From NCBI GenBank assembly GCA_026986655.1, contig JALSOD010000190.1, positions 1 through 35,467 on the forward strand: 35,467 nucleotides of DNA, written 5' to 3'. Positions 2,103 to 29,470 of this stretch are shown here, piece after piece. The stretch is from a candidate division WOR-3 bacterium (GTDB taxonomy: Bacteria > Hydrothermota > Hydrothermia > B15-G9 > WFZT01). A program made the translations under genes and the position numbers. The notes under the pieces were generated by a model. That model worked only from the letters and a program-made list of their open reading frames with translations. It searched no databases and was not told the DNA's origin. Each line of letters begins with the position of its first letter. Position 1 is the stretch's first letter.

Positions 2103-2145
2103 CTTACCTAACCGATAACGTATTTACCACTTGCGGTTTGGTAAG
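2103..2145. repeat. Palindromic element copy 1a: CTTACCTAAC-N23-GTTTGGTAAG (right arm 1 mismatch)
   Basis: Read directly: left arm 2103-2112, right arm 2136-2145. The spacer contains AACGTATTTACCA (TATA-like). It sits in the divergent intergenic region between 1719..2099(-) and 2260..3300(+). Confidence 0.7.
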
Positions 2146-2148
2146 AGT

Positions 2149-2191
2149 CTTACCTAACCTCGACAGTAAAATCGTCTATAAGTTTGGTAAG
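2149..2191. repeat. Palindromic element copy 1b: CTTACCTAAC-N23-GTTTGGTAAG
   Basis: Left arm 2149-2158, right arm 2182-2191. It is tandem to copy 1a, separated by 3 nt. Confidence 0.6.
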
Positions 2192-2259
2192 ATCAACTCG
2201 AATAAAACAAACCTCAAAATCTTAAATAATATCCCGACGAATCCAATTGAGGGATAAAC

Positions 2260-3300
2260 ATGGATATAGTTTTTCACGACAGGGAGAAGGAGATCGAAGA
2301 GATAACGAGAATTCTAAAGAGTAGACCCGATTTAATCACGTTCGTCTATGGGCCGATAAATTCTGGGAAGTCGAGTTTGATGGATGAAGTGGTAAGGAGG
2401 TTACCGGAAAATTTCGTAACGTTTTTCATAGATTTGAGGGCGCACGTAGTTACGAACGTCGAAGAGTTTTACGATGTTCTTTTCAGCTACGAGGTAGGGT
2501 TGAAGAGAAAGATAACCAAGTTTAGCGACGTTATATCTTCTCTGGTATCTTCTGCAGTTAGAGTTTATTCGGGATTTCCTTTACCGGAGAGCCTGATTAG
2601 CAAAGTTCTGACGAAAGATAAACCTAAAAACGCATTCACCTACATCTTCAACGTCTTACAGGAACTTAAATCCAAAGGCAAAAGTCCCGTTATAATACTG
2701 GATGAACTTCAAGTCATAGGCGACCTAAAAATCGACGGACCGCTTATCTACGAACTCTTCAACTTCTTCGTAACCATCTCAAAACGCTACCACCTCGCCC
2801 ACGTCTTCGCTATCACTTCCGACTCACTCTTCATCGAGAAAGTTCACTCCGAAGCGATGCTCCACGGGAGATGCGATTACCTCTTAGTGGATGACTTCGA
2901 CTACGATACCACCAAAGAATTTCTGCAAAAATACGGATTTAGCCGGGAAGAGATCGAGTTAGCTTGGGAATACTTAGGCGGAAAACCGGTTTACTTGGTA
3001 GGAGCTATCAAGAACAAAGACAGGTTGAGAGAGTTTTGTGAGAACGTGCTAAAGGTAAGGTTCAGCCAGATTTTAGACACGATTTACGGAATTGAGGGTA
3101 AATTGTTCGAAGATGTTCTGAGCTACTTTAGAGAGATTTCGGAGAAAGAATCAGTGAGATATAGGAAGATCGACGAAGCTCTCAGGTTCTGCGTTAGGAA
3201 CAACATCCTGTTCTTGGATCCGGTAGAAAGAATCGTTAAGCCTCAGTCCCGCACAGACCTCCTCGCTATCAGAAAAGTCCTAAGCGAGATCCGTGATTAG
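2260..3300 (+). CDS. Archaeal AAA+ ATPase (Arch-ATPase family-like)
   Basis: 346-aa ORF with Walker A VYGPINSGKSSL and Walker B VIILDELQ. The N-terminus FHDREKEIEEI is typical of the archaeal ATPase family. GAGGG lies upstream of the ATG. Confidence 0.8.
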   Translation: MDIVFHDREKEIEEITRILKSRPDLITFVYGPINSGKSSLMDEVVRRLPENFVTFFIDLRAHVVTNVEEFYDVLFSYEVGLKRKITKFSDVISSLVSSAVRVYSGFPLPESLISKVLTKDKPKNAFTYIFNVLQELKSKGKSPVIILDELQVIGDLKIDGPLIYELFNFFVTISKRYHLAHVFAITSDSLFIEKVHSEAMLHGRCDYLLVDDFDYDTTKEFLQKYGFSREEIELAWEYLGGKPVYLVGAIKNKDRLREFCENVLKVRFSQILDTIYGIEGKLFEDVLSYFREISEKESVRYRKIDEALRFCVRNNILFLDPVERIVKPQSRTDLLAIRKVLSEIRD

Positions 3301-3356
3301 ATTAGGAGTGGAAATTACTTAGAGCAGGGCGAAACCGATTGATTTACCAGAGTTCA

Positions 3357-4178
3357 TTAAATCACTCGTAAACTGAAGTCGAGCCATTTTGAGGAGTGGG
3401 TTATGTATCCTGACGATATCACGTCCACACCAGTTTTAGCGTAACACTCGACGTTATCAGGGGTAATTCCGCCTGAGGCCTCTAATAGCACGCGATCTCT
3501 TAAACTTCTTTTTTCGAGCTCTCTTACGGCGGATTCCACCTCCTCGACGCTCATGTTATCAAACATTATTATGTCGACATTCATCTCTGCAACTTTAACA
3601 GCTTCATCCACAGTTTTAACTTCTACTTCAACTTTCTTGGTGAAAGATGTTTTTGCAAACTCGATGGCCTTCTCCAATCCGAAAATTCTGATGAGATTAC
3701 GCTTTACTATGACGCAGTCTCCGAGGGAATATCTGTGCGGATCGCCTCCACCGATCTCTATCGCCATCTTTTCGAACAGCCTAAAGCCCGGAGTTGTTTT
3801 CCTCGTTCCGGCTATTATCACGTTCGGATTAACCCTCCTTGCCTTCTCCACCATCTTTGCGACTGTGGTCGCTATCCCACTCATCCTCATTAGTATGTTT
3901 AAAGCCGTTCTCTCAACCTCGAATATCTCTTTGGCGTTGCCATCAACACGAATAACCACATCTCCTCTCCTCACTTTACTTCCATCCTCAACTTCAGCCA
4001 CGGCATCAACGCCTACGAGATCGAAGAGAATCCTTAACACTTCAACTCCTGCAACAACCCCCTCATCCTTCGAAACTATCTCCGCCCTAATTGCTTTGTC
4101 CGGAATTCTCAAAGCATTTCCCGTTGCGAGATCCTCTTCAAGATATTCGAGCAGTTTCTTCCTTATAATCGCTTTCAA
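3357..4178 (-). CDS. nadC: Nicotinate-nucleotide pyrophosphorylase (quinolinate phosphoribosyltransferase)
   Basis: 273 aa with the GTRKTTPGFR motif and a TIM-barrel-like C-terminal half. It overlaps the upstream nadX stop by 4 nt. It is the last gene of the nadA-nadX-nadC operon. Confidence 0.9.
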   Translation of the reverse strand: MKAIIRKKLLEYLEEDLATGNALRIPDKAIRAEIVSKDEGVVAGVEVLRILFDLVGVDAVAEVEDGSKVRRGDVVIRVDGNAKEIFEVERTALNILMRMSGIATTVAKMVEKARRVNPNVIIAGTRKTTPGFRLFEKMAIEIGGGDPHRYSLGDCVIVKRNLIRIFGLEKAIEFAKTSFTKKVEVEVKTVDEAVKVAEMNVDIIMFDNMSVEEVESAVRELEKRSLRDRVLLEASGGITPDNVECYAKTGVDVISSGYITHSSKWLDFSLRVI

Positions 4179-4927
4179 GTCCCTATCACCACCACTCCTT
4201 CCAAATCCTTAAGCAACCTCACAGCCGAAAGCGCAGCCAAAAGACTCGTCCTATCGTTCATCTTCACATTCTTAGTGATCGTCACAATTTCTCCGAAATC
4301 CCCCCTCACCCTAATCTCGTGAACATTTTTCTCCACATCGGGATCGGCGATTATCTTCACCCTAGTTCTCTCATATCCGACTCCGGCCAAGCTCAGAGTT
4401 GCCGCGATGTTCACGTTCTGGGGGAACAACCTTATGGCATCTTTTGCACTGCCCTCAAATAAGATCGTCGGCTTTTCTGTTCTCAATCCGAAGGCCTTTG
4501 GGTTCTTCCTTGTTATGAGCTCCACTTCCGCAATCATATCGGATACGGCCTTAACGCCATCTATCCCCACGATAGCTCCAGACGGAATGTATACCCTTTT
4601 GCCGTTTCTTCTCGCAACTCTCTCAAGCTTCTTTAGGAACTTTTCATCCAATGCACCAACGCTCAACACCATTAAATCCTTTCCCGACTCAAGTATCCTT
4701 TCCCCATAATCCCTCACAGCCTTTTGTGATGCAGCCTCAACGACCAAGTCCATTTCCAAAGATACGAATTCCTCAAAGCTTTTAGCAACCTTGGGCTTGA
4801 ATTTGAGCTCTTCGGCAAGCCTCACTGCCTTATCCCTAACCACATCGAACAATGCAACGACTCTTCCATCCATCACCTTGGCTATGAACGATCCTATTGC
4901 CCCGCAACCTATTATTCCAATCTTCAT
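4175..4927 (-). CDS. nadX: L-aspartate dehydrogenase (NadX type)
   Basis: 250 aa with an N-terminal Rossmann motif IGIIGCGAIG. The central VEAASQKAVRDYGERIL and C-terminal NVNIAATLSLAG...HEIRVRGDFGE resemble the Archaeoglobus/Thermotoga aspartate dehydrogenases as I recall them. It has 4-nt overlaps with both neighbours. Confidence 0.85.
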   Translation of the reverse strand: MKIGIIGCGAIGSFIAKVMDGRVVALFDVVRDKAVRLAEELKFKPKVAKSFEEFVSLEMDLVVEAASQKAVRDYGERILESGKDLMVLSVGALDEKFLKKLERVARRNGKRVYIPSGAIVGIDGVKAVSDMIAEVELITRKNPKAFGLRTEKPTILFEGSAKDAIRLFPQNVNIAATLSLAGVGYERTRVKIIADPDVEKNVHEIRVRGDFGEIVTITKNVKMNDRTSLLAALSAVRLLKDLEGVVVIGT

Positions 4928-5832
4928 GACCTTCCACCCCTCGAAATCTCCATCATTCGCTCTATAGCTCTCTTAGCCTTTCTCGCCACATCACTCGGAA
5001 CTTCTACTACATTTCTCTCCTCCCTCAAAGCCCTTAAAACATCCCTAAGCGTGTTCATCTTCATCTCTCTGCATATCACGCATTTCAAAGGATCTACTCG
5101 ATAACCTTCCGCCTTAAGCCTCTCTATCAGCCCGATCTCAGTTCCTATTACCGCACTTCCATGCTTTCTGACGAACTCCACCATCTGGCTCGTGGAACCA
5201 ATGTAATCCGACAACAGCTGAACTTCGGGGTTGCATTCAGGATGAACTATTATTGGAACTCCCTTAGCCTTAGCCCTAATAACATCCGATCTATCGAATT
5301 GGACGTGGACGTAGCAATGCCCACCCTCGGGAACGGGAATAACTCTCTTTTTAGTCTTCCATTCCGCAAACCAAGCCAAATTCCTATCCGGCCCAAGCAA
5401 AACTTCGTCGGAATTAAGCGATTTCACAACTCTAACAACGTTTGCGGAGGTGCAACATATATCCGCTTCCGCCTTAACTTCCGCATAAGTGTTGACGTAG
5501 GCTACAAATGGTAACCCATTTTCCTTCGCCTTATCGACCATTTCAGCATTGAGCTGCGATGCCATAGGACACTTAGCTTCCACTGGAATCAGAACAGTCT
5601 TCTCTGGATTCAAAATGGCTGCCGTTTCCGCCATGAAATCCACTCCGCAAAATATTATAACATCCGCATCCGTCTTCGATGCCATTACGGACAACTCCAA
5701 ACTATCGCCTACGAAATCCGCTATCTTCTGAATTTCCAAACGTTGATAGCTGTGCGCCAGTATAACTGCATTCTTCTCCTTCTTTAGTCTAATTATCTCC
5801 TTCACTAAATTCGAACACATGTTCGCGAACAC
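4924..5832 (-). CDS. nadA: Quinolinate synthase
   Basis: 302 aa. AVILAHSYQ, FCGVDFMAETA and HPECNPEV are characteristic NadA blocks. It is the first gene of the operon. The true start may be the internal Met (MCSNL...). Confidence 0.9.
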   Translation of the reverse strand: MFANMCSNLVKEIIRLKKEKNAVILAHSYQRLEIQKIADFVGDSLELSVMASKTDADVIIFCGVDFMAETAAILNPEKTVLIPVEAKCPMASQLNAEMVDKAKENGLPFVAYVNTYAEVKAEADICCTSANVVRVVKSLNSDEVLLGPDRNLAWFAEWKTKKRVIPVPEGGHCYVHVQFDRSDVIRAKAKGVPIIVHPECNPEVQLLSDYIGSTSQMVEFVRKHGSAVIGTEIGLIERLKAEGYRVDPLKCVICREMKMNTLRDVLRALREERNVVEVPSDVARKAKRAIERMMEISRGGRS

Positions 5833-7300: not shown

Positions 7301-7794
7301 TCGTAGTTTCAAATTCTAGTCCTCTAATTGCATTAGCTAAGATCGGGAAATTGTATATTCTAAGAGAACTCTTTAAAGAGATTATAATTCCGAAAGCTGT
7401 TTGGAATGAGGTTGTTGTTAAAGGCAAAGGAAAGCCAGGAGCTGAAGAGGTAGAAAAAGCGGAGTGGATTAAAGTCAGAGAAGTTAAGGATAGGCTTAGC
7501 GTTGAAGTTCTAAAGGGGGAAATAGAGATTGGAGAGGCAGAGGCAATAATTCTAGCAAAAGAGCTTAATGCTGATTTACTCATAATGGATGAGAAGATAC
7601 CAAGGATTATTGCCGAATCCATTGGCTTGAGAGTTATTGGTTCTCTTGCAATTCTCTATATTGCTAAGAAAAGAGGATTGATCAAGGAAGATTTCGACGA
7701 AATCGTTAAAGAATTGAGAGCTAGGGGCATTAGATTCAGCGATGACGTAATTAATAGACTAAAGCAAAAGTGGAAGAATAAAAACCTATTCTAA
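7297..7794 (+). CDS. DUF3368-type PIN-like nuclease toxin (pair 1)
   Basis: 165 aa. The N-terminus VVSNSSPLIALAKIGKLYILRELF plus GEAEAIILAKELNADLLIMDE is shared with 8276..8740 and 9446..9937. Confidence 0.8.
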   Translation: MIVVSNSSPLIALAKIGKLYILRELFKEIIIPKAVWNEVVVKGKGKPGAEEVEKAEWIKVREVKDRLSVEVLKGEIEIGEAEAIILAKELNADLLIMDEKIPRIIAESIGLRVIGSLAILYIAKKRGLIKEDFDEIVKELRARGIRFSDDVINRLKQKWKNKNLF

Positions 7795-18705: not shown

Positions 18706-18802
18706 ACAATCACCGTATAATGTTCTACCAACTTAGATATATGTTTTACCATACTGCCAATTCTCTTACACATGTCTAGGCTTTAAAATAATGAAATGAT
18801 GA

Positions 18803-19174: not shown

Positions 19175-22100
19175 TTACGTCACCCTAAACCACTTCTGCG
19201 ATTTCGTCGTTGCAAGTTGCTCAACAAATAGCTTAAAGTCTTCATCGATCTTAACAGGATTTTCAAGCTCTAATTCAAATGTATATTCAGGATTCTCATC
19301 AAGGCTTGCAATTTTCTGTAAGATTTCATCCACAACTCCAACCTTAGCAAGTTCAACCTCACACTTAAAGGTTGTAACATTCTTTCCTTCAACTTCGACC
19401 TTAATAGTTCCTGAAAGGTTTAAGAATGGAACTGCACCGCTTATACTCAGCGAATCTTCCTTTAAGTTATCCGATCCCTTACCAGAAACTTTGATAAGAG
19501 TAACACTCCTACCACTGAAGTCCTCGAATTTCTCAAGAATATCATCTGAAGAAACTAAAGTCTCTTTAGGTTTAGGTGGCTGTGGAGAAGGTGTAACTAC
19601 TGGAGGCTTAACTCTTCTAAGCTTATCTTTGATTTCGTCAGCGTATTCCCTCCTGAAGATGTATGTTACTTCACCTTCACTTCCGAAAGCGTCTAAGACT
19701 GCTTTAGCTTCATCATTCTCCAATTCTACTCCACTTTCAAGCTTCTGTATCGACGAAATATCCCCAGCAAATAACTCAAGTTTATCTGATCGCTTTGCAG
19801 CATCAATTATATCCTTTCTGCTATACTCTAGGAGCTGTGAATCTATCTTTGAAAATTCCTCGTAATTCTTATCTCCGAGAACCTTAATAATTTTCTCAGC
19901 TATTAAATCAGCTCTCTTCTTCTTCGCAACTTCTAGAAGTTTTTCTGCAAAATCTTTTTTAAGGATGTAATCTGAACTTCTAACCTCAGCTACCTCAACA
20001 CCCATTTTGAGGTTCTTGAGAATTTCATCACTTTTTTCAAGATCGACTTCCTCAGGTTCACAGATTTCTCCTCTGAAAATGGCGATATCTCCAGTTTTAA
20101 CCAACTCTTTCAAGCTTGCTTTTAGAAGCTTTGCTGGGATGAATGGATAGCTCGTTGAATTTGCAGTAGTTTGGATAAGATCTGAGAACTTCACGTAATC
20201 CTTTTCAAGACCCATCACTCCTTCAACGTAGTCTATACTTGCGGTGCTTATGACCTTACCATACTTCTTTTCAAGATCTTCAAATATCCTCTCTGAGTAT
20301 TTTGCCTTATCATCATAGGTAATAGGTGAAATTGGCTTCACTTCTTGATCATTTTTCTTGTAAAATCCTGCATAAGAGTATAAGTTTATCAGCTTTTGTG
20401 CTGCTTTTGCATAGATTTTCTTCTGAATATCTCTAAGCTCCTTTATGAACTCCTTGTCTTTTGACCTTTCCTTCTTCAACTTCTCGCATGCAATCAATTC
20501 TTTAACTGTATCCCTAAACGAAGGTATCTCCGATGGTATTGGAAACAGCAAAATGACTGAATTTCTGTTTGGCGTGGTTATAGAAAGCATTTGTGAGAAT
20601 ATCCTACTGTAAACTTCCCTTCTTACAACATCTTCAGACACACTCTCATACTCCTTAGTGCTCTTTATTGCCCTATAATAGTTAAAAACATCTTCGTAAT
20701 CTATTACAAAAATGTTCAACCTGTTTGGATCGGTATTATCCTTCTTTATCTCCTTATCAAAGATATTAACGGCTATAGTCTCTGTAGATGGGATTATCTT
20801 AGAAATAAACTCTTTTTGGAGATGTAGCTTAACTTCCTCATCTTTAACATCTCTGGCAGCTATCCTGACTAAAGCTCTTGGATTTACTTCAGTCTTGAAG
20901 AAGTATCTATCCGTTCCTTCAGCTCTGAAAAGATGCGTAGTAATCTCATCATATAACCTCTCAAGATATGCGTCTATCGTTGATGGATCGAGATTAGCAT
21001 CGCCAAGCGCTCTAAACACCATTCTACCATTTGCTCCTCGCTTTGTTTCGTCTGGGAAGAGGGAGTAGAGGTAAACCGTAGTTGCGATCCTTACGAAGTT
21101 ACCGAATCTAATCTTACCACCATCAGCCTGCTGGGCGTGGGCCGTTCCTTCACTTGTAGCTATATCGGTTTGGACGACTTGATCGAGCTTCTTTCCAAAT
21201 ATTTCAGCCGTAAGCTTGCTTCTAAGTTCGGAATCAGATAGATCAACCTCACCAGCAGAAATGAAGAGACTTGTTTCTGGTAACTCATCAACATGCCTCA
21301 ATAGGTTCACTATAACTCTCGCCATTATCTTAAGAATTCCTCTCGTTCTCTGGAAGTTCTCATATGTGCCAATTCTACCAAAGAATATCTCTTCAATAAG
21401 TTCAGGATGGAAGGGATAACACTCGGCAAGTCTTTCTTCTCTATAAGCGTCGGCAACCCCGAGCTTGGCAACGTAAAGCTCATGGAGAGCTTTGGCAACC
21501 TTCCTGGCGAAGTTCTCATCAATGTGCTTTATGAATCTTTTCTTCAGAATTCTTATTATATCCTCCTTTGAAACTGGTTCTATCCTTATTGCTCCTCTTT
21601 CAGCTATTGCAGTGATATCTCTCAAAATTTGAGCCTCTTTTTGATAAGCTTCACTTTCTGGTATTGTAAGCACGACAATAGAAGTTTTTGTAGCCTCTGT
21701 AGCAACAAAGAGTGAGTGTATAAAACCCTTGTTTTGGGCAATCCTGCCGTTACCTTCTTTTTCGCCCATAATCTTAGAGAAGTAAACTACGAGTTCATCA
21801 AGGAGGAAAATAACAGGCTTACCGATTCTTCTTATAGCGTTTTCAATTTCTTTAGCGGTAGGAGGTAAAGTTTTTGAAGTTATAGAAACATCTCCTAATT
21901 CCTTCCCAATAACGTTCCAGAGGTTTGTTTCAGGATCAACGTTATGTCCGTCTATTGCAACTATCTTTACTTCAGGGATTGTTTCAAGTCCAAGTTCTTT
22001 AAGAATCTGTCTAATCTCCTGACTATTCAAAGCTACATCTCTATTCTTGAATACATGGTAGAGCATGACAAGAGTATGAGTTTTACCGCCTCCAAAGGTT

Positions 22101-22402
22101 GTATCAAGAATTATTGCATAGGATTCGTCTGAGATGGATGCCACTCGTGACAGGACTCTCATTAGTATGGTCTTCATGTAATCCGAAAAGTGCGTCTTTT
22201 TGAAGAATTGGACAGGATCAAGATAGATAGGATGAGCGTTTCCGCTGAGAAAGTTTGAGAATTCTACTTCAAAGATCGCTTCATTTATGCTTGCATGAGG
22301 GTTCGATGCAATTCTAACTAATTCATCGTCGAAAACGACTTTACCTTCCTTTATTGCATTCTTAAGAGATAAAGACTCAAAGTTGTAGACAGTCATAGTC
22401 AC
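19175..22402 (-). CDS. DUF499-family P-loop ATPase (large, about 1075 aa)
   Basis: LDTTFGGGKTHTL (the FGGGKTH P-loop typical of DUF499) and VIFLLDELVVY (Walker B-like). The likely start is ATG 22396 (GGAGGGTG upstream) rather than the GTG at 22402. Confidence 0.8.
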   Translation of the reverse strand: MTMTVYNFESLSLKNAIKEGKVVFDDELVRIASNPHASINEAIFEVEFSNFLSGNAHPIYLDPVQFFKKTHFSDYMKTILMRVLSRVASISDESYAIILDTTFGGGKTHTLVMLYHVFKNRDVALNSQEIRQILKELGLETIPEVKIVAIDGHNVDPETNLWNVIGKELGDVSITSKTLPPTAKEIENAIRRIGKPVIFLLDELVVYFSKIMGEKEGNGRIAQNKGFIHSLFVATEATKTSIVVLTIPESEAYQKEAQILRDITAIAERGAIRIEPVSKEDIIRILKKRFIKHIDENFARKVAKALHELYVAKLGVADAYREERLAECYPFHPELIEEIFFGRIGTYENFQRTRGILKIMARVIVNLLRHVDELPETSLFISAGEVDLSDSELRSKLTAEIFGKKLDQVVQTDIATSEGTAHAQQADGGKIRFGNFVRIATTVYLYSLFPDETKRGANGRMVFRALGDANLDPSTIDAYLERLYDEITTHLFRAEGTDRYFFKTEVNPRALVRIAARDVKDEEVKLHLQKEFISKIIPSTETIAVNIFDKEIKKDNTDPNRLNIFVIDYEDVFNYYRAIKSTKEYESVSEDVVRREVYSRIFSQMLSITTPNRNSVILLFPIPSEIPSFRDTVKELIACEKLKKERSKDKEFIKELRDIQKKIYAKAAQKLINLYSYAGFYKKNDQEVKPISPITYDDKAKYSERIFEDLEKKYGKVISTASIDYVEGVMGLEKDYVKFSDLIQTTANSTSYPFIPAKLLKASLKELVKTGDIAIFRGEICEPEEVDLEKSDEILKNLKMGVEVAEVRSSDYILKKDFAEKLLEVAKKKRADLIAEKIIKVLGDKNYEEFSKIDSQLLEYSRKDIIDAAKRSDKLELFAGDISSIQKLESGVELENDEAKAVLDAFGSEGEVTYIFRREYADEIKDKLRRVKPPVVTPSPQPPKPKETLVSSDDILEKFEDFSGRSVTLIKVSGKGSDNLKEDSLSISGAVPFLNLSGTIKVEVEGKNVTTFKCEVELAKVGVVDEILQKIASLDENPEYTFELELENPVKIDEDFKLFVEQLATTKSQKWFRVT

Positions 22403-22411: not shown

Positions 22412-22858
22412 TTATGACTCAGCTTCTCTTAAAATTAATTCATAATCTTCTTCCGGGATTTCCCGCATAGCCTTTCCCATTAGATGACCACTCCATCTCT
22501 TTTTGTTTGTAATGAATTTGAGCTTCGGAATTAAGGGCTTGAACTCCACGGGTTTGTCGAATATCTTAACAGGCTTAATCTTAACCCTCCAAGGGAAAGT
22601 TTCGTTAGTTTTCATACCCTTAGAACTGAAAATCCTCGTAGAATCCTTAAACGGCTCGGAAACGACTTCGTAAATTCCAACGATCCTCGACTCTTTAACT
22701 TCATCACCAACCTTCTCCTGCTTGAGATAGATCATAAGCTTATCTCCGGGCTTAACCTTAGCGATCGTATTCTTATGCCTCTCCGGAACTCCCCATACAT
22801 TTCGCTCCTTTATCACCTTCCAGTTTGCTTCGTTCGTAATGCAGAGCCAGTAAGCCAT
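22412..22858 (-). CDS. EVE (PUA-like) domain protein
   Basis: [30 protein letters not shown]...[13 protein letters not shown]...[12 protein letters not shown]...[13 protein letters not shown] prefer the start at 22858 because GAGGTGA lies 4 nt upstream; the ORF track starts at 22873. It ends 9 nt before the DUF499 gene. Confidence 0.6.
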
Positions 22859-22876
22859 TAAATCACCTCTCAATCT

Positions 22877-23288: not shown

Positions 23289-23558
23289 ATGAACAATGAA
23301 GAACTCCGCAACATTCTGAAAGCTACAATTCTCAAGAAGCTTAAGAGGAGAGGAAAATGGGGACACGCTCATACAAGCTTCGATAAACTAACTTCCGGAA
23401 TTCCAAAGCATTTACGTGGATTGGCTAAAGAAGTTGCCGAGGAATTGATTAAAGAAGGTTTACTAATCGCTAAGCCTACCTCCTACGGTTTGGAGATATC
23501 GTTAAATCCGAGAAGAAAGGCCGAGATCGATGAGATCATTGAGAAATACTTGAAATGA
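23289..23558 (+). CDS. Hypothetical small basic protein (possible winged-helix-like)
   Basis: 89-aa ORF, divergent from the operon regulator. I recognise no diagnostic motif. Confidence 0.55.
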   Translation: MNNEELRNILKATILKKLKRRGKWGHAHTSFDKLTSGIPKHLRGLAKEVAEELIKEGLLIAKPTSYGLEISLNPRRKAEIDEIIEKYLK

Positions 23559-23601
23559 GCACCTAACAGATGGTGATGGTAAAACCAACACGTTAGGTAA
23601 G
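23558..23601. repeat. Palindromic element copy 2 (left arm degenerate: AGCACCTAAC-N24-GTTAGGTAAG)
   Basis: The right arm at 23592-23601 is perfect. The left arm matches 7/10 at the exact 24-nt spacing. It lies between the 89-aa gene's stop and the DUF1922 gene. Confidence 0.45.
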
Positions 23602-23845: not shown

Positions 23846-23851
23846 TCGAAT

Positions 23852-23876
23852 GGGGACGGGTGGGCGGGTGGGTGGG
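23852..23876 (+). other. Six-tract G-run (potential G-quadruplex motif): GGGGACGGGTGGGCGGGTGGGTGGG
   Basis: Read directly. G-tracts sit at 23852-55, 58-60, 62-64, 66-68, 70-72 and 74-76, with 1-2-nt loops. It starts 7 nt after the DUF1922 stop codon. Confidence 0.6.
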
Positions 23877-23894
23877 CGATAAACGATCTTCGGA

Positions 23895-23957
23895 GGGGAA
23901 GGTTGGAGAGACGGCCCAAAACGGTGTCACGTCGAACTCCAAACCCCAACCTTCCCC
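23895..23957 (+). ncRNA. GC-rich hairpin with a perfect 12-bp stem; candidate structured RNA, strand uncertain
   Basis: GGGGAAGGTTGG (23895-23906) is the exact reverse complement of CCAACCTTCCCC (23946-23957), with a 39-nt interior. It is a local GC island in an otherwise AT-rich genome. No credible CDS lies here. Confidence 0.25.
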
Positions 23958-23984
23958 GAAAGGAGTTTGTTCGAAATTTTATAA

Positions 23985-24390: not shown

Positions 24391-24738
24391 AATGATCGAA
24401 AGGTCGAAGAACGAGCCAAAATTGTTTTAGCTGAAAGCTGTAAAATGTCCTTTTTTCTTTTTAAAGAAAGCTCGCCCCGATACCCGGGTTGGTTCTAAAA
24501 ACGAGTAAGTCAAAAACAGGCAATGCTCATCCTTACGTCGGTCGAGCTTTCTAATTTGATTTCTTTTGGAAAATCGCTTTCAGCGCGCTCGGAGAGCAAA
24601 ACATTTTTGTGCCTCGTTCTTCGCTCCCAGAGATGCCGAGAAACGGAGTTCGAAAGGAGATAACAAATATTAAGGCATAGAGGAGAGAGCGTCAGATAAG
24701 CACGATGAAAGCTTGGAAGTCATTTAGCGTTACGGGTT

Positions 24739-24782
24739 CTTACCTAACAGCCCGATGATTACTTAAGCACTTGTTAGGTAAG
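24739..24782. repeat. Palindromic element copy 3 (perfect CTTACCTAAC-N24-GTTAGGTAAG)
   Basis: Arms at 24739-24748 and 24773-24782. It lies in a 467-bp ORF-free region. Confidence 0.75.
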
Positions 24783-24857
24783 AGCAAGCGGTGAAGAATA
24801 GGAAAAAGCGGATCCCGGTATCGCGAGTTTAGGGTTTGTTTGAGCATTGCAGGTTTA

Positions 24858-25142
24858 TCAAACACTCCACTTAAAGAGAGATACGCAGACGTTAATTGCT
24901 ATACAGAGCAACCCTATGACGAACAGAGCAATCGGAATTATTTGGGATTTAGTGTCTCTGTATAAATAATAACAGAAAGCAATGATTGATATCTTAGGGA
25001 GAATTATCCCCAACTCACCGTAGCCGGCGACGAACAGATTGACAACAGGGTTTAACTCCACGCAACCACTTCTTAAATTCATAATCGTTGTAACCGTATC
25101 CCCAATTCCGTAGAAAAGTATCGCAAGGATCCAGAGCCTCAC
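24858..25142 (-). CDS. Small 3-4 TM membrane protein (DUF5658-like)
   Basis: 94 aa: YGIGDTVTT...ELNP. It overlaps the upstream gene's stop by 4 nt. Confidence 0.6.
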   Translation of the reverse strand: MRLWILAILFYGIGDTVTTIMNLRSGCVELNPVVNLFVAGYGELGIILPKISIIAFCYYLYRDTKSQIIPIALFVIGLLCIAINVCVSLFKWSV

Positions 25143-26008
25143 AGATCCCTAACCTCTCTGAATAACATCGACCTGAAGAAGTACAGGACTATCAGGACGG
25201 AGAGAATGGAGGCGTGTTCGTATCCAGAACGAAGGGCTAAGACTATTATCGTTCCAATAACTCCGATTAAGAACAATGGAAAGAGAGTTACGCTCTCTTT
25301 TGGCAGCTTAAACCTCTCGTTCTCGAAGTTCCAATCTTGCCAGAATTCTACAAGCTTCTTATTCTTCAAAGCTTTCCTTTCGTTCTTAACTCCACAATAC
25401 AAAGCTGAGATTTTACCGAGCTTCATCAGCTCATCCAAAAATACCAAAACCTGTTTCGAGGAGTTTTCAAAGTGATTCACAGCCAGCTTAACTCTAAATT
25501 CAGCCTCCTTCAAGGCTCGGAACTTCTCGACGTTGGTTTTCAAGCCTTTCTCGTCGACTCCTGCAACTATCAAAAGAGCTTTCAGGATGTAGCTTGCGGT
25601 AGGATAATCGACGTAGACAAACGCATCGTCCATTTTCTTCTTTAGCTCGTCGGCTTCGTAGATCCTGAACGATCTTTCACCTTCGTTTTCCCTATTCTCC
25701 TCTTTCTTCTCTTCTCCCTTCTTACCTAACGTATCGGTTTTATCGCTAGCATCTGTTAGGTAAGATTTTTCCAGAGTGATATTGAGGCCGTTCAGGGCGT
25801 AGAGGATGTTCCTACCTTTGTCGGTTAGACGAACTTTTCCAACCCTCCATTCGATTAGATCGAGCTGTTTTAGATGTTCTAACCGTCTGTAGAACGTAGC
25901 CCTTGACATTCCGTTACCGTTAAAGTGTTCGTGATAAACTTCGTGAGGATTGACGTATTCTTCTCCAAAGCTTTTAAGGATCCTTAGCGATTTCTCATCG
26001 AGCTTCAT
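25139..26008 (-). CDS. wHTH regulator-like protein with an acidic/basic linker and a C-terminal two-helix membrane anchor
   Basis: 289 aa. MSRATFYRRLEHLKQLDLIEWRVGKVRLTDKG is an HTH plus wing. The C-terminus LFPLFLIGVIGTIIVLAL...ILSVLIVLYFF looks transmembrane. The CDS contains palindromic element copy 4. Confidence 0.65.
   Translation of the reverse strand: MKLDEKSLRILKSFGEEYVNPHEVYHEHFNGNGMSRATFYRRLEHLKQLDLIEWRVGKVRLTDKGRNILYALNGLNITLEKSYLTDASDKTDTLGKKGEEKKEENRENEGERSFRIYEADELKKKMDDAFVYVDYPTASYILKALLIVAGVDEKGLKTNVEKFRALKEAEFRVKLAVNHFENSSKQVLVFLDELMKLGKISALYCGVKNERKALKNKKLVEFWQDWNFENERFKLPKESVTLFPLFLIGVIGTIIVLALRSGYEHASILSVLIVLYFFRSMLFREVRDL
25721..25764. repeat. Palindromic element copy 4 (perfect), inside the CDS 25139..26008
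   Basis: Arms at 25721-25730 and 25755-25764. It encodes SYLTDASDKTDTLGKK in the linker of the wHTH-TM protein. Confidence 0.75.
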
Positions 26009-26837
26009 AGAACCACACCTTAATTCTTACATTTTCTTCGTAATCGTTTTTTAATTTTCTGTAAAGATCAAATCCCGTTCCCGTGAAATCGTGATAGCTT
26101 TCGTTTACGGAATAGCCGATGATAATCCTGTGCTTCCACATCGATCTTTTAAGACTTTTCACTTTGGTAGTAACGACATCCAGATTCCTGTCTGCATCTT
26201 CAACGTCCAGAATCTTCAGATCCAAAATCTGAGATTTCGAGATCTTCTTAAATCTGCCGTCTTGGACGATTCCTATGTTGTTTTTGCCGTCGGTCCATAC
26301 GACTTTCGCATGGCTCAGTCGGTATATCGCTCCGTTCTCAAAATATGAAAGTGAGATCGCTACACCGTTCTCAGTCGATAATCTGAACGCCTTTTCCAGT
26401 TCCGTTACAGGTTCGACGTAGCTTATCTCTACAGAGGCTAACAGGATTATACCCAACACGAAGAATTCAGCTGAAGATCCCGTCCTAAGTCTCCACGATG
26501 GTGGCGTTAAATAGTACACTGTTTCTATCGGATAAAGCAGCTTAACTCCAGAATATGTCATCATGTCTCCGAGAAGATGGCTGAAGTATGCAATTAATCC
26601 AACTATCCAGAGGCTTAGATCTATGAAAATAAGTGGGTAGGTAGCGATTAAGGCAGAGTAAAGGGTGTGGGTGTAAGTTCTGTGCTTAAGCCCTATCAGG
26701 TAATCGAAGTCCGGTAGAACTGCAAATAAAGAAGCTACAACCCAAGCCAAATGCGAAGTTAGCAGGCTTGTCAGAAAGGCTATCTCCGCTATCTTTACCA
26801 TTAATATCGCTAAGGCTACGTGAGTTATCCACTTCAC
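25995..26837 (-). CDS. Membrane-bound metal-dependent hydrolase (DUF457/YdjM-like) with a C-terminal soluble extension
   Basis: 280 aa: MKWITHVALA..., PDFDYLIGLKHRTYTHTL, HLLGDMMTYSGVKLLYP. Confidence 0.7.
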   Translation of the reverse strand: MKWITHVALAILMVKIAEIAFLTSLLTSHLAWVVASLFAVLPDFDYLIGLKHRTYTHTLYSALIATYPLIFIDLSLWIVGLIAYFSHLLGDMMTYSGVKLLYPIETVYYLTPPSWRLRTGSSAEFFVLGIILLASVEISYVEPVTELEKAFRLSTENGVAISLSYFENGAIYRLSHAKVVWTDGKNNIGIVQDGRFKKISKSQILDLKILDVEDADRNLDVVTTKVKSLKRSMWKHRIIIGYSVNESYHDFTGTGFDLYRKLKNDYEENVRIKVWFYEAR

Positions 26838-26855
26838 TCTACCACTCTCGGTTAA

Positions 26856-27173
26856 TCAATAACCTAAACGCTTTCTCCTCTCCTCTAATATCTCATCCAA
26901 CCCGGACAGCAGTTTTCTTATTTCCTTCTCCCTTTCCTTAGCTTTGATTTCTTCGATTTCCCATTGCAATCTTCGAATCTCGTTCCTGAGATCTTCGATT
27001 TTATCATCGATCTCTTCAGCTAGAATCTGTTTTATGGCTTTCAGAGTGTTGTAGTAATCGTATGCGGTCGCTAAACTCACTCCAAATTGCTCTGCTATCT
27101 CCACCGGACTTCTAGGATTCGCTTTTGCTATCTCTATCAGCCTCCTCAGAGCCTTGCTTCTTACACCTTTCAT
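26856..27173 (-). CDS. HTH + coiled-coil small DNA-binding protein
   Basis: 105 aa: SPVEIAEQFGVSLATAYDYYNTLK (HTH), followed by heptad-like EIRRLQWEIEEIKAKEREKEIRKLL. Confidence 0.6.
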   Translation of the reverse strand: MKGVRSKALRRLIEIAKANPRSPVEIAEQFGVSLATAYDYYNTLKAIKQILAEEIDDKIEDLRNEIRRLQWEIEEIKAKEREKEIRKLLSGLDEILEERRKRLGY

Positions 27174-27248
27174 ATTCTCACATTGTGAGAATTCCCCTAA
27201 ATACTTTTCTCATATTGTGAGAAAAATTATAGCGAAATCCTTGCAGCT

Positions 27249-27632
27249 TCAGCTCAGGTCGATCTTCTCAAGCTTCCTCTTCTCCTTATGGATCTGTCTA
27301 AGTCTTTCTAAGATTGCTTTAGCCTTCTCCCTCTTCTCGGCCTTCATAGCATCGATCGCCTTTCCCAAATACTTCCACCTAACCTTTCCTCCCTCCCTGT
27401 AAACGATGTAATAATAGGGACCGTGTGGACACTTCCTACATCCATCCTTCCCGCATTTTACGTATTTAGCTACGATACTACCTTTCGGAAGTCCAAGACT
27501 TGATAACTCGTCCAAAAGCTTCCTCTCCTCTTCTTCCAGCTCCTTGAGCCTCTGCTTTCTCTTTTCGATCTCTTCGAGCTTCCACCTCAGCTCCTCTTCA
27601 ATCTCTTCGATCTTACCTAACTTCCTCGCCAT
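27249..27632 (-). CDS. Small coiled-coil + Zn-ribbon-like protein, paralog of 1719..2099
   Basis: 127 aa: KELEEEERKLLDELSSLGLPKGSIVAKYVKCGKDGCRKCPHGPYYYIVYREGGKVRWKYLGK. Codons 5-7 (LGK) are encoded by an arm of the palindromic element. Confidence 0.75.
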   Translation of the reverse strand: MARKLGKIEEIEEELRWKLEEIEKRKQRLKELEEEERKLLDELSSLGLPKGSIVAKYVKCGKDGCRKCPHGPYYYIVYREGGKVRWKYLGKAIDAMKAEKREKAKAILERLRQIHKEKRKLEKIDLS

Positions 27633-27655
27633 GTTAACACCTCTTGTTAGGTAAG
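27612..27655. repeat. Palindromic element copy 5 (perfect), spanning the start codon of 27249..27632
   Basis: Arms at 27612-27621 (inside the CDS) and 27646-27655 (5' leader). The 24-nt spacer contains the ATG (27632-27630). Confidence 0.75.
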
Positions 27656-27660
27656 ATGAT

Positions 27661-27704
27661 CTTACCTAACAGCTTAACGTATTTAACCCTTTCCGTTAGG
27701 TAAG
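27661..27704. promoter_or_regulatory. Palindromic element copy 6 (perfect), arms bracketing a TATA-like box
   Basis: Arms at 27661-27670 and 27695-27704. The spacer AGCTTAACGTATTTAACCCTTTCC contains TATTTAA (27680-27686), about 50 nt upstream of the 27632 ATG. Confidence 0.55.
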
Positions 27705-27753: not shown

Positions 27754-27909
27754 GTGATTGAAAAACTTAAGGGTATATTTAATTTCTTCCGCTTCAAAGA
27801 TGAAAATGAAGCAATAATAGTTGGGCTTGCAGGGAGTGAAGAAATTTTTGGAGAGGCAATAGATGTTATTTTAAAAAGAAATAAGGAAAAAATAAAGCAA
27901 AATCATTAA
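27754..27909 (+). CDS. Possible 51-aa small ORF
   Basis: GTG 27754 is preceded by GGAAAGG. It reads VIEKLKGIFNFFRFKDENEAIIVGLAGSEEIFGEAIDVILKRNKEKIKQNH*. It occupies the position that the ATPase gene holds in module copy 1. Confidence 0.3.
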   Translation: MIEKLKGIFNFFRFKDENEAIIVGLAGSEEIFGEAIDVILKRNKEKIKQNH

Positions 27910-28078
27910 TCGATCCCTTTTGTAAAAGCCCTCTCAGCGGATTCTTGAGCTTTTCAAATTTCCCTTTTCCAACCCTCCTTCAGAATCTCCTGCTCAATCA
28001 AGCAACTTTTCTTACTCCCTCAGAAGCTCGATTCTGATTCAATCTCACTCTAAAGCGGATTTCTTCAACCTCTTTTAT

Positions 28079-28122
28079 CTTACCTAACAACCTAACGTAC
28101 TTAACCTTTTCTGTTAGGTAAG
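28079..28122. repeat. Palindromic element copy 7 (perfect), with the conserved spacer AACGTACTTAACC
   Basis: Arms at 28079-28088 and 28113-28122. The minus-strand sequence next to it translates as LGKIKEVEEIRFRVRLNQNRASEGVRKVA*, a decayed N-terminus of another Zn-ribbon/coiled-coil paralog. Confidence 0.75.
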
Positions 28123-28177: not shown

Positions 28178-28375
28178 ATGATAGACAACGTAACCTTAAT
28201 CAAAGACTTGAAAGAGTTAAGAGAGAAAATTCAAGAAGACTTAGAAAGACTAGATTCTATCATCGAGACGTTAGAAATAATGGCTGACGAAGATTTGATG
28301 AAATCAATTAAGAAGGGCTTAGAAGATATTGAGAAGGGCGATGTCGTCGATTTTGAAGACCTTCTGAAAGATTAA
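28178..28375 (+). CDS. Small acidic helical antitoxin-like protein (archaeal RelB-like)
   Basis: 65 aa, helical and acidic (DLKELREKIQEDLERLDSIIETLEIMADEDLMKSIKKGLEDIEKGD). A TATA-like TTTATTATATA lies about 27 nt upstream, so the transcript may be leaderless. Confidence 0.5.
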   Translation: MIDNVTLIKDLKELREKIQEDLERLDSIIETLEIMADEDLMKSIKKGLEDIEKGDVVDFEDLLKD

Positions 28376-28629
28376 TAAACCTCTTTTCTGTGACCTATCG
28401 AAACAAGCCAAATTATCTTGTTATTCTCGTCAACTTTGTAAATGATTCGGTATTTCCCAACTCTCAATGATCTCAATCCGGCCAAATCGTAAGATAACGG
28501 TTTACCAGCATATGGATTTTCCTTTAACTTTTCCAAAGATTTCAGAATACGCTCCTTTAGAGGTCCATCTTTCTTAGTTAGATCCTTAAACCTTTTCTTG
28601 AATTCTTTCGATGGTTTAATAGTCCACAT
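28372..28629 (-). CDS. relE: RelE/ParE-family toxin
   Basis: 85 aa: LRVGKYRIIYKVDENNKIIWLVSIGHRKEVY is a classic RelE/ParE C-terminal block. An AT-rich TATA-like region lies upstream. Confidence 0.8.
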   Translation of the reverse strand: MWTIKPSKEFKKRFKDLTKKDGPLKERILKSLEKLKENPYAGKPLSYDLAGLRSLRVGKYRIIYKVDENNKIIWLVSIGHRKEVY

Positions 28630-28920
28630 GACGTATTTATGAAGTATCCAAAAATTGATAAAACTTTCAAAAAATTTATTAAAATTTAAATATTATATGC
28701 TCATAACTAGTCTGAGAATGATTGAAGAACAACTCACTAGTCTTAGATATCTTTACGTTTCGGTCACCGTACACCAGAAACTGAATACCTTTTCGGCGGT
28801 AACGTTGATAAGCTTTGTGGAGGTAATGTTTGTAGGGTATGATAAAAACTTTCTTTAAGGAAGGTAATTTGAAATAGGATCCGTCCGACCAGCTGTGAAG
28901 AAGAATACGGTACTGACTTT

Positions 28921-29217
28921 TTAAACATCAAACATGAACATAGATAATAAAAGTGAAAGCAAAGACATTACCACAGCCAACATTATTTTTCTGTAAATTT
29001 TAAGCCCCTTTGTGAATTCGTCAGCGTAGCTAGAAACGGATGAAACAAGCTCGATGTGCTTCATTATATTCTCAGATAAGGCCAATTCTGCCTTCGTAAA
29101 ACTGTTTATCATCTCGTTCCAATTCCTGTATACTTCCCCATATCTATCTAACCTCTGATCGAAGCGATCTAACAGTATTCTGAGATCCCTAAGACTATCG
29201 TTAATTTGAGTTAGCAA
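28921..29217 (-). CDS. Hypothetical tail-anchored membrane protein
   Basis: 98 aa from a TTG start. The N-terminal part is helical and there is a single C-terminal TM (IMLAVVMSLLSLLLSMFMF). Confidence 0.4.
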   Translation of the reverse strand: MLTQINDSLRDLRILLDRFDQRLDRYGEVYRNWNEMINSFTKAELALSENIMKHIELVSSVSSYADEFTKGLKIYRKIMLAVVMSLLSLLLSMFMFDV

Positions 29218-29324
29218 AAGATTACTTTAAATCTTCTAGCCTTTGAAAATTTCATTAGCGAAACGACTTTTCCCAAATACTTACCTTTAGTTTTACTACC
29301 TTCCTTGTAGCTCTAAAAGCACAT

Positions 29325-29424
29325 CTAATAGCTTTTCTCTTTCTCTTCAAGCTCCTTTAACTTTTTCTTCCTTTTTTCAACCTCTTCAAGTGTCTTCCCC
29401 CACTCTAACACGCTCTTACCTAAC
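29325..29424 (-). pseudogene. Truncated remnant of a third/fourth Zn-ribbon/coiled-coil paralog
   Basis: The reverse strand reads LGKSVLEWGKTLEEVEKRKKKLKELEEKEKSY*. It parallels the N-termini of 27249..27632 and 1719..2099 and then stops. There is no Zn-ribbon part. Confidence 0.5.
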
Positions 29425-29470
29425 CTCTTGCCTATTTACCACTTACGGTTTGGTAAGAATCTTACCTAAT
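29415..29470. repeat. Palindromic element copy 8 (CTTACCTAAC-N23-GTTTGGTAAG) plus an adjacent half-site CTTACCTAAT
   Basis: Arms at 29415-29424 and 29448-29457; half-site at 29461-29470. It is colinear with 2103-2160. Confidence 0.65.

Follow-up and report, generated by a model that had tools for sequence, protein, structure and literature searches.

Contig JALSOD010000190.1 (assembly GCA_026986655.1) carries about nine copies of a dispersed 44-bp palindromic element made of two inverted boxes and a spacer. What reads this element, and what does it do? A first-pass annotation, made from the sequence alone, had suggested an operator for one of several nearby DNA-binding proteins or, alternatively, a miniature mobile palindrome. 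We analyzed the whole 35,467-bp contig, part of a metagenome-assembled genome and referred to here as the window. We conclude that the 44-bp element is the promoter-operator of genes encoding DUF6788 family proteins and is not a mobile palindrome. DUF6788 itself is probably the protein that binds each box and autoregulates its own promoter, with the other copies perhaps serving as auxiliary or replicon-related sites for the same protein. Strict linkage of gene and site, covariation of the boxes with a protein hairpin, and similarity of that hairpin to one in UBP, the ucm-binding protein of Sulfolobus replication origins, all point to the zinc-ribbon/coiled-coil paralogues among the binders first suggested; these paralogues are the DUF6788 proteins.

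Paired boxes in the window

We scanned the window for CTTACCTAAC-N22-26-GTTAGGTAAG. The first-pass annotation had reported five perfect copies, and exactly these five were recovered, all with a 24-nt spacer; each of 100 dinucleotide-preserving shuffles of the window gave no match. With up to one mismatch, the 10-mer was found 22 times, compared to 2.4 expected (shuffle maximum, 8), and 18 of the 22 belonged to pairs that had been named in that annotation. The three near-perfect pairs and the degenerate pair it listed were likewise present, as were the contexts it described for the start-codon, intragenic, and intergenic copies. The sites, and the two DUF6788 genes with which they are discussed below, are as follows.

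1719..2099, minus strand: DUF6788 gene 1, 126 aa (PF20586, 58.1 bits against a cutoff of 27.2); proposed box binder
2103..2145: near-perfect pair, CTTACCTAAC-N23-GTTTGGTAAG; core promoter-operator of DUF6788 gene 1, with TAAATA in the spacer on the minus strand and the proximal arm 3 nt before the ATG at 2099
2149..2191: second near-perfect pair, again with a 23-nt spacer and right arm GTTTGGTAAG, separated from the first by 3 nt; in the intergenic region of the divergent DUF6788 and ATPase_2 genes, with the ATPase_2 ATG 69 nt downstream
23558..23601: degenerate remnant pair; left arm AGCACCTAAC with 3 mismatches (7/10 identical), 24-nt spacer, perfect right arm
24739..24782: perfect copy, an orphan whose spacer lacks a TATA-like box; 76 nt past the DUF6788 operon on its 3′ side, within a gap of 467 bp (24391-24857) free of open reading frames (ORFs)
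25721..25764: perfect intragenic copy, in the linker-coding part of the winged helix-turn-helix (wHTH)-membrane gene 25139..26008; encodes SYLT...LGK
27249..27632, minus strand: DUF6788 gene 2, 127 aa, first gene of its operon (PF20586, 41.4 bits against a cutoff of 27.2)
27612..27655: perfect copy covering the Shine-Dalgarno sequence and ATG (27630-27632) of DUF6788 gene 2; second operator, 5 nt from the promoter copy
27661..27704: perfect copy; core promoter-operator of DUF6788 gene 2, with TTAAATA in the spacer on the minus strand
28079..28122: perfect copy; promoter of a decayed DUF6788 gene, with a spacer 89% like that of 27661-27704
29415..29470: near-perfect pair 29415-29457 (right arm GTTTGGTAAG, 23-nt spacer) and an adjoining half-site, 29461-29470; decayed duplicate of the 2103-2191 tandem

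The true arm length is 11 bp (TCTTACCWAAC/GTTWGGTAAGA), the outer T and A being constant in all 27 distinct promoter copies that we aligned in gene orientation. Only the arms are conserved; the spacers of independent copies are unrelated, and perfect arms together with unrelated spacers indicate selection on the arms only. A TATA-like box is bracketed in only four of the roughly nine window copies, the rest being intragenic, start-codon spanning, or orphan. Conservation of the arms alone supports the earlier reading of the element as a protein-binding site and does not fit a repeat family. Two of the less usual arrangements recur elsewhere: the tandem of 2103-2191 in locus L057 and the intragenic pair at the matching position of the wHTH-membrane homologue in locus L060. 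The degenerate pair 23558-23601 is a paralogue of the intragenic copy (82% identity over 49 nt).

The boxes lie on the promoters of DUF6788 genes

The 126- and 127-aa proteins are members of DUF6788: their PF20586 matches span positions 2 to 99 of the 103-position model, and the domain is present in all 39 closest database homologues, of which those on plasmids are annotated “DUF6788 family protein.” The product of gene 1 consists of an N-terminal helix, a Zn-ribbon with a beta-hairpin (C55, C60, C63, H65, HGPYYY...KWKYLGK), and a C-terminal helix.

In the 27-copy alignment the layout is T-CTTACCWAAC, a spacer with an AT-rich TATA-like box, GTTWGGTAAG-A, 2 to 4 nt, and ATG; some Archaeoglobi have a short leader with a GGTG Shine-Dalgarno sequence in place of the 2 to 4 nt. 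This anatomy is common to Halobacteria and Archaeoglobi. The spacer is 24 nt at 16 sites, 25 nt at 6, 23 nt at 4, and 22 nt at 1. The gap between arm and ATG is exactly 3 nt at 13 of the 27 sites, and the AT-rich box lies 23 to 24 nt (12/27) or 28 to 31 nt (11/27) from the end of the proximal arm on its upstream side. Judged by position, the distal arm covers about −38 to −48, just upstream of the expected B recognition element, and the proximal arm covers about −4 to −14, which places it downstream of TATA and ahead of the start site. This is the architecture of a core promoter with an overlapping operator. In the halovirus phiH, the start of transcript T8 (annotated in the record from published mapping) is at position 4734 of locus L127, inside the proximal box (4730-4739) of a CTTATCAAAC-N26-GTTTGACAAG pair, and the ATG is at 4742. 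Spacers thus run from 22 to 26 nt, and the fixed distance of three helical turns proposed in the first-pass annotation does not hold.

Box pairs and DUF6788 genes are linked in Archaea

A genome-wide search for the motif had been suggested as a check, and we scanned one genome per GTDB species (596 Gb) for the box-pair pattern. It gave 53 loci, of which 6 are bacterial and 47 archaeal, the latter from Halobacteria (some on plasmids), Archaeoglobaceae, Bathyarchaeia, and Thermococci; by our estimate, about 15 chance matches are expected in random sequence of this size. Five of the six bacterial loci are fully self-complementary hairpins, as chance would give. The exception, L033 (Chloroflexales), is also the sole bacterial locus with a DUF6788 gene. 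We conclude that the box site is specific to Archaea.

Read from motif to gene, a DUF6788 gene begins 0 to 17 nt from the arm in 14 of the 47 archaeal loci. Read from gene to motif, all close archaeal homologues with upstream DNA, whether from metagenomes, a viral contig, or plasmids, have boxes directly upstream.

Homologues with boxes directly upstream: L057 to L064, L066, L067, L069 to L071, L073, L125, and plasmids L129 and L134

This pairing of boxes and gene holds across Archaeoglobi, Halobacteria with their plasmids, and two haloviruses, phiH and PhiCh1. A CTTA...TAAG inverted repeat lies upstream of 41 of 74 DUF6788 genes, compared to 66 of 1,480 control windows. The family comprises 1,513 representative clusters (50% identity) at an E value of ≤1e-3 and occurs in Archaeoglobi, Halobacteria, haloviruses, Bathyarchaeia, and Bacteria, on plasmids, viruses, and variable islands. 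It is present on dozens of haloarchaeal plasmids and in the most intensively studied haloarchaeal viruses, and virus genome papers list it as “uncharacterized” in phiH, PhiCh1, and ChaoS9.

Box sequence covaries with the DUF6788 hairpin

In diverged homologues the geometry of the pair is kept and the inner bases of the box are changed (variants CTTATCAAAC, CTTATGTAAC, CTTACGCAAC, and CTTACCCTAT). The hairpin residues sort by box class into KWKY/DWEY, RY[FY]R...S[EV]Y, V[VA]H...CY, and LVW...RERY.

CTTACCWAAC: window, Archaeoglobi, many Halobacteria; hairpin KWKY / DWEY
CTTATCAAAC: PhiCh1 (three copies), phiH (two copies); hairpin DWEY / NWEY
CTTATGTAAC: Haloquadratum PL100 (two copies), L131, L133, metagenomic L101; hairpin RY[FY]R ... 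S[EV]Y
CTTGTACAAC: L132; hairpin YKYRAYR ... RREY
CTTAC[GA]CAAC (L106, L107) and CTTA[GT]ACAAC: L106, L107, L112 group; hairpin V[VA]H ... CY
CTTACCCTAT: L076, L081, L087; hairpin LVW ... RERY

One of the PhiCh1 CTTATCAAAC copies has the same arrangement of arm, 3 nt, and ATG. In the proteins, the Zn ligands (Cys/Cys/Cys/His) are conserved, Y68 is invariant, and Y83 is nearly so. An AlphaFold2 model of the full-length gene 1 product (predicted local distance difference test score [pLDDT], 80) has a helix/beta-domain/helix layout reminiscent of prefoldin beta, and the helices could mediate oligomerization; haloarchaeal DUF6788 proteins have no C-terminal helix.

The DUF6788 hairpin resembles the DNA-binding hairpin of UBP

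UBP (SiRe_1573/Saci_0847; PDB 9EFD, 9EFE, and 9EFF) binds an 11- to 12-bp site as a monomer, its beta-hairpins entering the major groove (Dhanaraju et al., Nat Commun 2025, PMC12141716). K63, K67, and K69 are required for DNA binding; K63 touches bases, and Y57 and Y72 touch phosphates (PMC12141716). Monomer binding to a site of this length fits one DUF6788 molecule per 10- to 11-bp arm.

The best PDB match of a DUF6788 profile was UBP (9EFD/9EFE/9EFF; E = 0.002), and a second, independent profile had the same top match (E = 0.05). A UBP fragment, residues 44 to 85, scored 22 to 24 bits against DUF6788 hidden Markov models (HMMs), whereas the best of 2,000 shuffles reached no more than 10 bits. 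The aligned stretch is the DNA-binding “stirrup” hairpin of UBP, IGKYWYKLEKIGGKLKWIYLGK, which pairs with HGPYYYLVWKEGGKTKWKYLGK of DUF6788. In our reading of the alignment, UBP K63, K67, K69, Y57, and Y72 correspond to identical residues K74, K78, K80, Y68, and Y83 of the window protein; the match extends over only some 30 to 40 residues. Full-length UBP was not retrieved with the duplicated 29-aa or 42-aa fragment in a word-indexed protein search, by tblastn against PLSDB, or in a scan of IMG/VR, so homology is argued from the PDB profile matches and the shuffle test.

The sites are also alike. The ucm site ATTATACAAA and the ucm sequences ATTATACAAAAG and ATTATACAAACT match the box pattern TTA-NNN-AA, and one box, CTTATACAAC (L112, L115, L120, and L122), contains the ucm core TTATACAA verbatim. 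DUF6788 thus appears to be a remote relative of UBP, judging from these profile, residue, and site matches. UBP is reported to be essential, chromosomal, and limited to Sulfolobales and Desulfurococcales (PMC12141716); DUF6788 has a zinc site and occurs outside those orders. Because of its conserved zinc ligands and wider distribution, DUF6788 would be at most a sister family of UBP and not its orthologue.

Duplicated modules and other features of the window

The genes around the boxes fall into two intact modules and two decayed ones.

2260..3300, plus strand: ATPase_2 (PF01637) with an MJ1010-like C-terminal domain; divergent neighbor of DUF6788 gene 1
24858..27173, minus strand: downstream operon genes, encoding a 105-aa helix-turn-helix (HTH)/coiled-coil protein (weak DUF7342 match), a YdjM-family membrane protein, a 289-aa wHTH-membrane protein, and DUF5658
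29220..29414, minus strand: DUF6788 pseudogene with stop codons and a deleted Zn-ribbon (tblastn E = 1e-9, match at 29220-29435; six-frame HMM E = 0.005)
29551..29595, plus strand: ATPase_2 N-terminal remnant MEIIFHDRENEIDEI, completing the decayed copy of the 1719-3300 module

Module A consists of DUF6788 gene 1 and the ATPase_2 gene, divergent, with the tandem sites 2103-2145 and 2149-2191 between them; ATPase_2 is possibly coregulated through these tandem boxes, and its similarity to Orc1/Cdc6 lies far below threshold. Its decayed duplicate, A′, is made up of the DUF6788 pseudogene, site 29415-29457, the half-site, and the ATPase_2 remnant. In module B, sites 27661-27704 and 27612-27655 are followed by DUF6788 gene 2 and the HTH, YdjM-family, wHTH-membrane, and DUF5658 genes, with the orphan site beyond; this operon is kept in seven loci. 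Module B′ is decayed, with site 28079-28122 adjoining DUF6788 gene remnants at 27905-28093 (the part at 28061-28093 being weak). Decayed Zn-ribbon genes had been described beside some copies, and the pseudogene and the weak remnant at 28061-28093 confirm them. That all copies derive from one duplicated segment was true in part: duplication of gene plus promoter accounts for the four TATA-containing copies and leaves the remaining copies unexplained.

The window looks like a chromosomal piece of an Archaeoglobaceae-like archaeon, since the contigs most closely related to it come from Archaeoglobaceae metagenome-assembled genomes. It also contains nadA, an aspartate dehydrogenase gene, and nadC (3357-5832), together with toxin-antitoxin genes. 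An Hma-type helicase-methylase-ATPase defense system occupies 11957-22402 on the minus strand. Its helicase (11957-14989) is of the SNF2/ResIII type and carries a NOV_C domain; the methyltransferase (15467-18085) has DUF1156 and matches HmaB, and the ATPase (19175-22402) has DUF499 and matches HmaC. Interspersed among them are PIN-MazE genes, and an EVE-domain gene follows at 22412-22873. PADLOC gave no defense-system match for DUF6788. No tRNA genes were found in the window, and a tRNA integration site was rejected on that ground. The window has no Rfam match at gathering thresholds; this includes the ORF-poor stretch 23850-23960, in which a G-rich tract, GGGGACGGGTGGGCGGGTGGGTGGGCG, precedes GGGGAAGGTTGG ... 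CCAACCTTCCCC, a perfect 12-bp inverted repeat whose arms are 38 nt apart.

A second type of palindrome lies at 27172-27226, directly upstream of the 105-aa HTH/coiled-coil gene (26856-27173). Its two copies, TTCTCACATTGTGAGAA and TTCTCATATTGTGAGAA, are 32 nt apart and are probably the operator of that HTH protein itself. At 28178-28629, a ParE-family toxin gene (28372-28629, minus strand) converges with a 65-aa ORF (28178-28375, plus strand) that lies 56 nt from box pair 28079-28122; homologous ParE genes are found upstream of DUF6788 in L060, L061, and L069.

Several settings of box pairs outside the window are recorded here. In L001 (Halobacteriales metagenome-assembled genome, CAZFMN010000097.1), pairs 424-468 and 7462-7506 abut the terminal repeats of two CRISPR arrays whose 37-nt repeat begins GTTGCAACGCCCC. 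The pair is within a 129-nt stretch (386-514 and 7424-7552) identical at both arrays, so these boxes appear to lie in a CRISPR leader. L035, at a contig end, has a spacer nearly identical to that of L001, and in L083 a CRISPR array is 0.5 kb from the DUF6788 gene. A paralogue of TBP (TATA-binding protein) is divergent from a box pair in L011 (5816-6094; Halorussus contig) and in L031 (2152-2685; Haloarcula plasmid). In the Haloquadratum walsbyi C23 plasmid PL100 (L130), a box pair sits between a tyrosine recombinase gene and the DUF6788 gene. The Bathyarchaeial loci L026, L047, and L048 have conserved spacers containing a Shine-Dalgarno sequence and ATG, and the proximal arm encodes ...VLGK of a non-DUF6788 ORF of about 66 aa. 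The arm encodes LGK in window genes too, as ARKLGK in 27249..27632 and TLGKK in 25139..26008.

A proposed mechanism and the evidence against it

We infer that DUF6788 binds the boxes, that one monomer occupies each box, that binding represses, and that the nonpromoter sites have a role. Each 11-bp arm, TCTTACCWAAC, would be the recognition box for one molecule of the DUF6788 protein encoded by the adjacent gene, and the two inverted boxes, 22 to 26 nt apart, would bracket the TATA box of that protein's own leaderless or short-leader promoter. Once occupied, the proximal box should hinder recruitment of RNA polymerase or promoter opening, giving negative autoregulation that would keep the protein at a steady, homeostatic level. 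The position of the proximal arm (about −4 to −14) makes blocked polymerase recruitment or DNA melting more likely than blocked TBP binding; occlusion of TBP and transcription factor B, as first suggested, is unsupported. The variable spacer argues for independent or flexibly linked monomers over a rigid dimer. Tandem, start-codon, intragenic, and orphan copies could add cooperativity, coregulate neighbors such as ATPase_2, or serve an architectural role.

A number of observations weigh against this proposal. No DUF6788 gene is present within the 8-kb locus at 33 of the 47 archaeal loci, and the Bathyarchaeial copies lie on another small ORF. The covariation has an exception in the Chloroflexales locus L033, where CTTACCTAAC boxes occur with a different hairpin. 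Across the 22- to 26-nt range of spacers, the arms rotate by >100 degrees relative to each other on the helix, a poor fit to a rigid dimer. The phiH T8 transcript has been described as constitutive; this is compatible with homeostatic autoregulation but is no evidence for it. The similarity to UBP covers only about 30 to 40 residues with modest E values, the haloarchaeal DUF6788 profile alone does not match UBP, and UBP is reported to have no Zn-ribbon (PMC12141716). In Foldseek searches of the PDB, the beta-domain AlphaFold2 model (pLDDT, 73) ranked UBP chains 9eff_A, 9efe_A, and 9eff_B 1 to 3 without significance (E = 0.45 to 1.1; template modeling score, 0.36 to 0.42), and the full model placed UBP fourth (E = 0.5, not significant) behind prefoldin-like top matches.

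Alternative explanations

The same boxes and a UBP-like binder could have their primary job in replicon biology, as origin- or centromere-like landmarks of plasmids, proviruses, and islands, with the promoter overlap being secondary. Halobacteria carry a module in the order boxes, orc1/cdc6, origin, boxes, and DUF6788 (Orc1/Cdc6 by Pfam and annotation). DUF6788 is typically divergent from orc1/cdc6, across a 0.6- to 0.9-kb gap in which inverted repeats of the origin recognition box (ORB) type (e.g., CTCCACTGTTTCCGGAGCT) flank about 200 nt. On the 3′ side of the orc gene there is another ORB cluster; L006, L012, L041, and L049 have box pairs at the edges of, or within, both clusters, and plasmid L129 shows the same gene order with box pairs on both sides of the orc gene. 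This position parallels that of ucm in Sulfolobus origins, and UBP acts at origins and contacts MCM (PMC12141716). DUF6788 of phiH, PhiCh1, and ChaoS9 is in the lysogeny/plasmid-maintenance region with int2, parA, repR, and repH, further box pairs are present upstream of the parA operon and beside repH/imm in phiH and PhiCh1, and at least 11 of 40 listed plasmid matches are within 6 kb of record ends. However, what varies least from taxon to taxon is the location of the boxes on the promoter of the gene itself and not at an origin. Several plasmid loci have no initiator within 3.5 kb, some box copies adjoin housekeeping genes (the glycyl-tRNA synthetase gene in L016 and L071), and in the window orc1/cdc6 is absent, as are ORB-like repeats, RepH, and ParA from the vicinity of the boxes. 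For the window itself, an origin was rejected, there being neither ORB-like repeats nor an initiator gene, and we accordingly treat replication or segregation as a rival or additional function, unlikely to be the primary one. Binding of the boxes by a different factor, with DUF6788 only regulated, is in our judgment improbable. That factor could be the 105-aa DUF7342-like protein, the 289-aa wHTH-membrane protein, or a conserved host protein; the two HTH genes are in the same window operon, the boxes of L052 separate DUF6788 from a divergently oriented full DUF7342 gene, and many box pairs have no DUF6788 gene nearby. The boxes of Halobacteria and Archaeoglobi are nearly identical while their DUF6788 proteins share only about 30 to 35% identity, which could suggest a more conserved reader. 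Yet neither an HTH family nor any other gene family besides DUF6788 is consistently a neighbor of the boxes in all taxa: in L059 and L060 the gene after DUF6788 is already YdjM, and haloarchaeal and viral loci occur without the HTH operon genes of the window. Outside this operon type the HTH candidates of the first-pass annotation are not conserved next to the site, and the 105-aa gene has distinct palindromes of its own. Box variants follow DUF6788 hairpin residues, and that hairpin resembles one proven to bind DNA.

Binding and autoregulation by DUF6788 must also be set against readings of the palindrome that concern the DNA or RNA itself. As recombination sites, for a tyrosine recombinase or of the attC kind, the pairs would have DUF6788 as an accessory or directionality factor. 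The arms ACCTAAC/GTTAGGT, read directly, fit the integron core sites RYYYAAC/GTTRRRY, box pairs flank some genes on both sides (L067 and L125), and a tyrosine recombinase gene is beside DUF6788 in phiH (L127), PhiCh1 (L128), ChaoS9, and PL100. We regard this as very unlikely: the spacers are not self-complementary, so the inner L′/L″ stem of attC is missing; a 22- to 26-nt spacer is far from the 6 to 8 nt of tyrosine recombinase core sites; the common T/A asymmetry would be an uncompensated hairpin mismatch; and a fixed position on the TATA box and ATG is a property of promoters. The window proteins that were scanned against Pfam include no integrase, and neither does the Pfam list for L054, an overlapping contig. 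An integron attC site was rejected on its missing inner stem, its spacing, and the lack of an integrase among the scanned window proteins, even though the core consensus fits by eye. Action as an RNA or single-stranded-DNA hairpin, such as a translational or stability element or a terminator, has slighter odds still. Stem folding is a trivial consequence of inverted arms, although each copy can form a 10- to 12-bp stem (z score, about −3.2 to −4.6) and copy 27612-27655 would loop out the Shine-Dalgarno sequence and AUG. In promoter copies the start site, whether predicted or, in phiH, mapped, is at or after the proximal arm, so that no transcript would contain the complete hairpin; in CTTACCAAAC/GTTAGGTAAG variants the stem is disrupted and no compensating change is seen, there is no Rfam match, and this reading too was rejected. 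A miniature mobile palindrome, similar to a miniature inverted-repeat transposable element (MITE), spread through the region is the least credible of these readings. It would account for multiple copies within 6 kb, some of them intragenic or orphan, in a region rich in decayed genes and toxin-antitoxin modules. Against it, the element measures only 44 bp, conservation stops at the arms and the palindromic T...A that flanks them, and duplication of gene plus promoter accounts for copies whose spacers are alike. Unrelated spacers mean that the copies were not derived from one mobile sequence. With unrelated interiors, a shared T...A as the sole flank, and a promoter position held across distant archaeal classes, a MITE was rejected, and this part of the earlier proposal falls.

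Significance and comparison with known systems

Our literature search returned nothing on DUF6788 and nothing linking it to these boxes or to UBP, and searches with the box sequence gave nothing relevant. What appears to be new is a predicted UBP-like beta-hairpin DNA binder with a Zn-ribbon, acting on paired inverted boxes at its own promoter and far more widely distributed than UBP. DUF6788, a family with no assigned function, thereby gains a precise candidate DNA site, a conserved promoter architecture, and a plausible mechanism borrowed from UBP. Related boxes are now placed inside haloarchaeal Orc1/Cdc6 origins. A specificity series for a beta-hairpin DNA recognition code is already at hand in the natural variants of box and hairpin, and boxes could mark promoters, origins, and mobile-element boundaries in archaeal genome annotation.

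With attC sites, repetitive extragenic palindromic elements, and MITEs, the element shares its dispersed imperfect palindromes with conserved ends and a variable center, as well as arms that fit RYYYAAC/GTTRRRY. It differs in having no inner stem, integrase, target-site duplication, or conserved interior and in its fixed position on promoters.

The archaeal repressors MDR1, LrpA, Phr, SvtR, and RepR of phiH and PhiCh1 have operators that overlap the core promoter. The DUF6788 boxes resemble these in being palindromic, in lying on or next to the TATA box and start of their own gene, and in probably acting by a block of polymerase recruitment and autoregulation. Those repressors are HTH, wHTH, or ribbon-helix-helix proteins with close half-sites, whereas the half-sites here are about 34 bp apart from center to center, flank the TATA box, and have a proposed Zn-ribbon/beta-hairpin reader. 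ParG, omega, and AspA of pNOB8 are centromere-binding, autoregulatory partition proteins. They too are small and bind DNA, at repeated or palindromic sites that precede par operons and double as operators, and phiH and PhiCh1 have a box pair upstream of the parA operon. There is no fold relationship with DUF6788, which lies outside the par operon, and the window has no ParA.

The closest comparison is with UBP. Both proteins are small (about 110 to 127 aa), and in both systems the recognition site is about 10 to 12 bp, follows TTA-NNN-AA, and is present many times per replicon. In DUF6788 the hairpin is preceded by a Cys/His Zn-ribbon, and the proteins of Archaeoglobi also have long helices at both termini; UBP, which has a five-stranded sheet and no reported zinc, dimerizes in the free state by a C-terminal strand swap. 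DUF6788 boxes are inverted pairs 22 to 26 nt apart on the gene's own promoter, whereas ucm is a single site in the origin unwinding element. DUF6788 is found on plasmids, viruses, and islands in Euryarchaeota, Bathyarchaeia, and Bacteria, whereas UBP is chromosomal. We put forward, tentatively and as a conjecture that may well fail, that DUF6788 is the counterpart of UBP outside Crenarchaeota. It would be a Zn-ribbon/beta-hairpin family of sequence-specific binders in Archaea and Bacteria (at least 1,500 clusters at 50% identity) whose paired ucm-like boxes are at once its own promoter-operator and landmarks of Orc1/Cdc6 origins and partition regions in archaeal plasmids, phiH, PhiCh1, and genomic islands, with specificity reprogrammed by a few hairpin residues. 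In 2025, UBP and ucm were described as having arisen recently within Sulfolobales and Desulfurococcales, and our comparison suggests that they may belong to a much wider family. The authors of that study asked whether other lineages possess analogous origin proteins (PMC12141716); ucm lies in Sulfolobus origins, and DUF6788 boxes lie in haloarchaeal Orc1/Cdc6 origins with ORB repeats.

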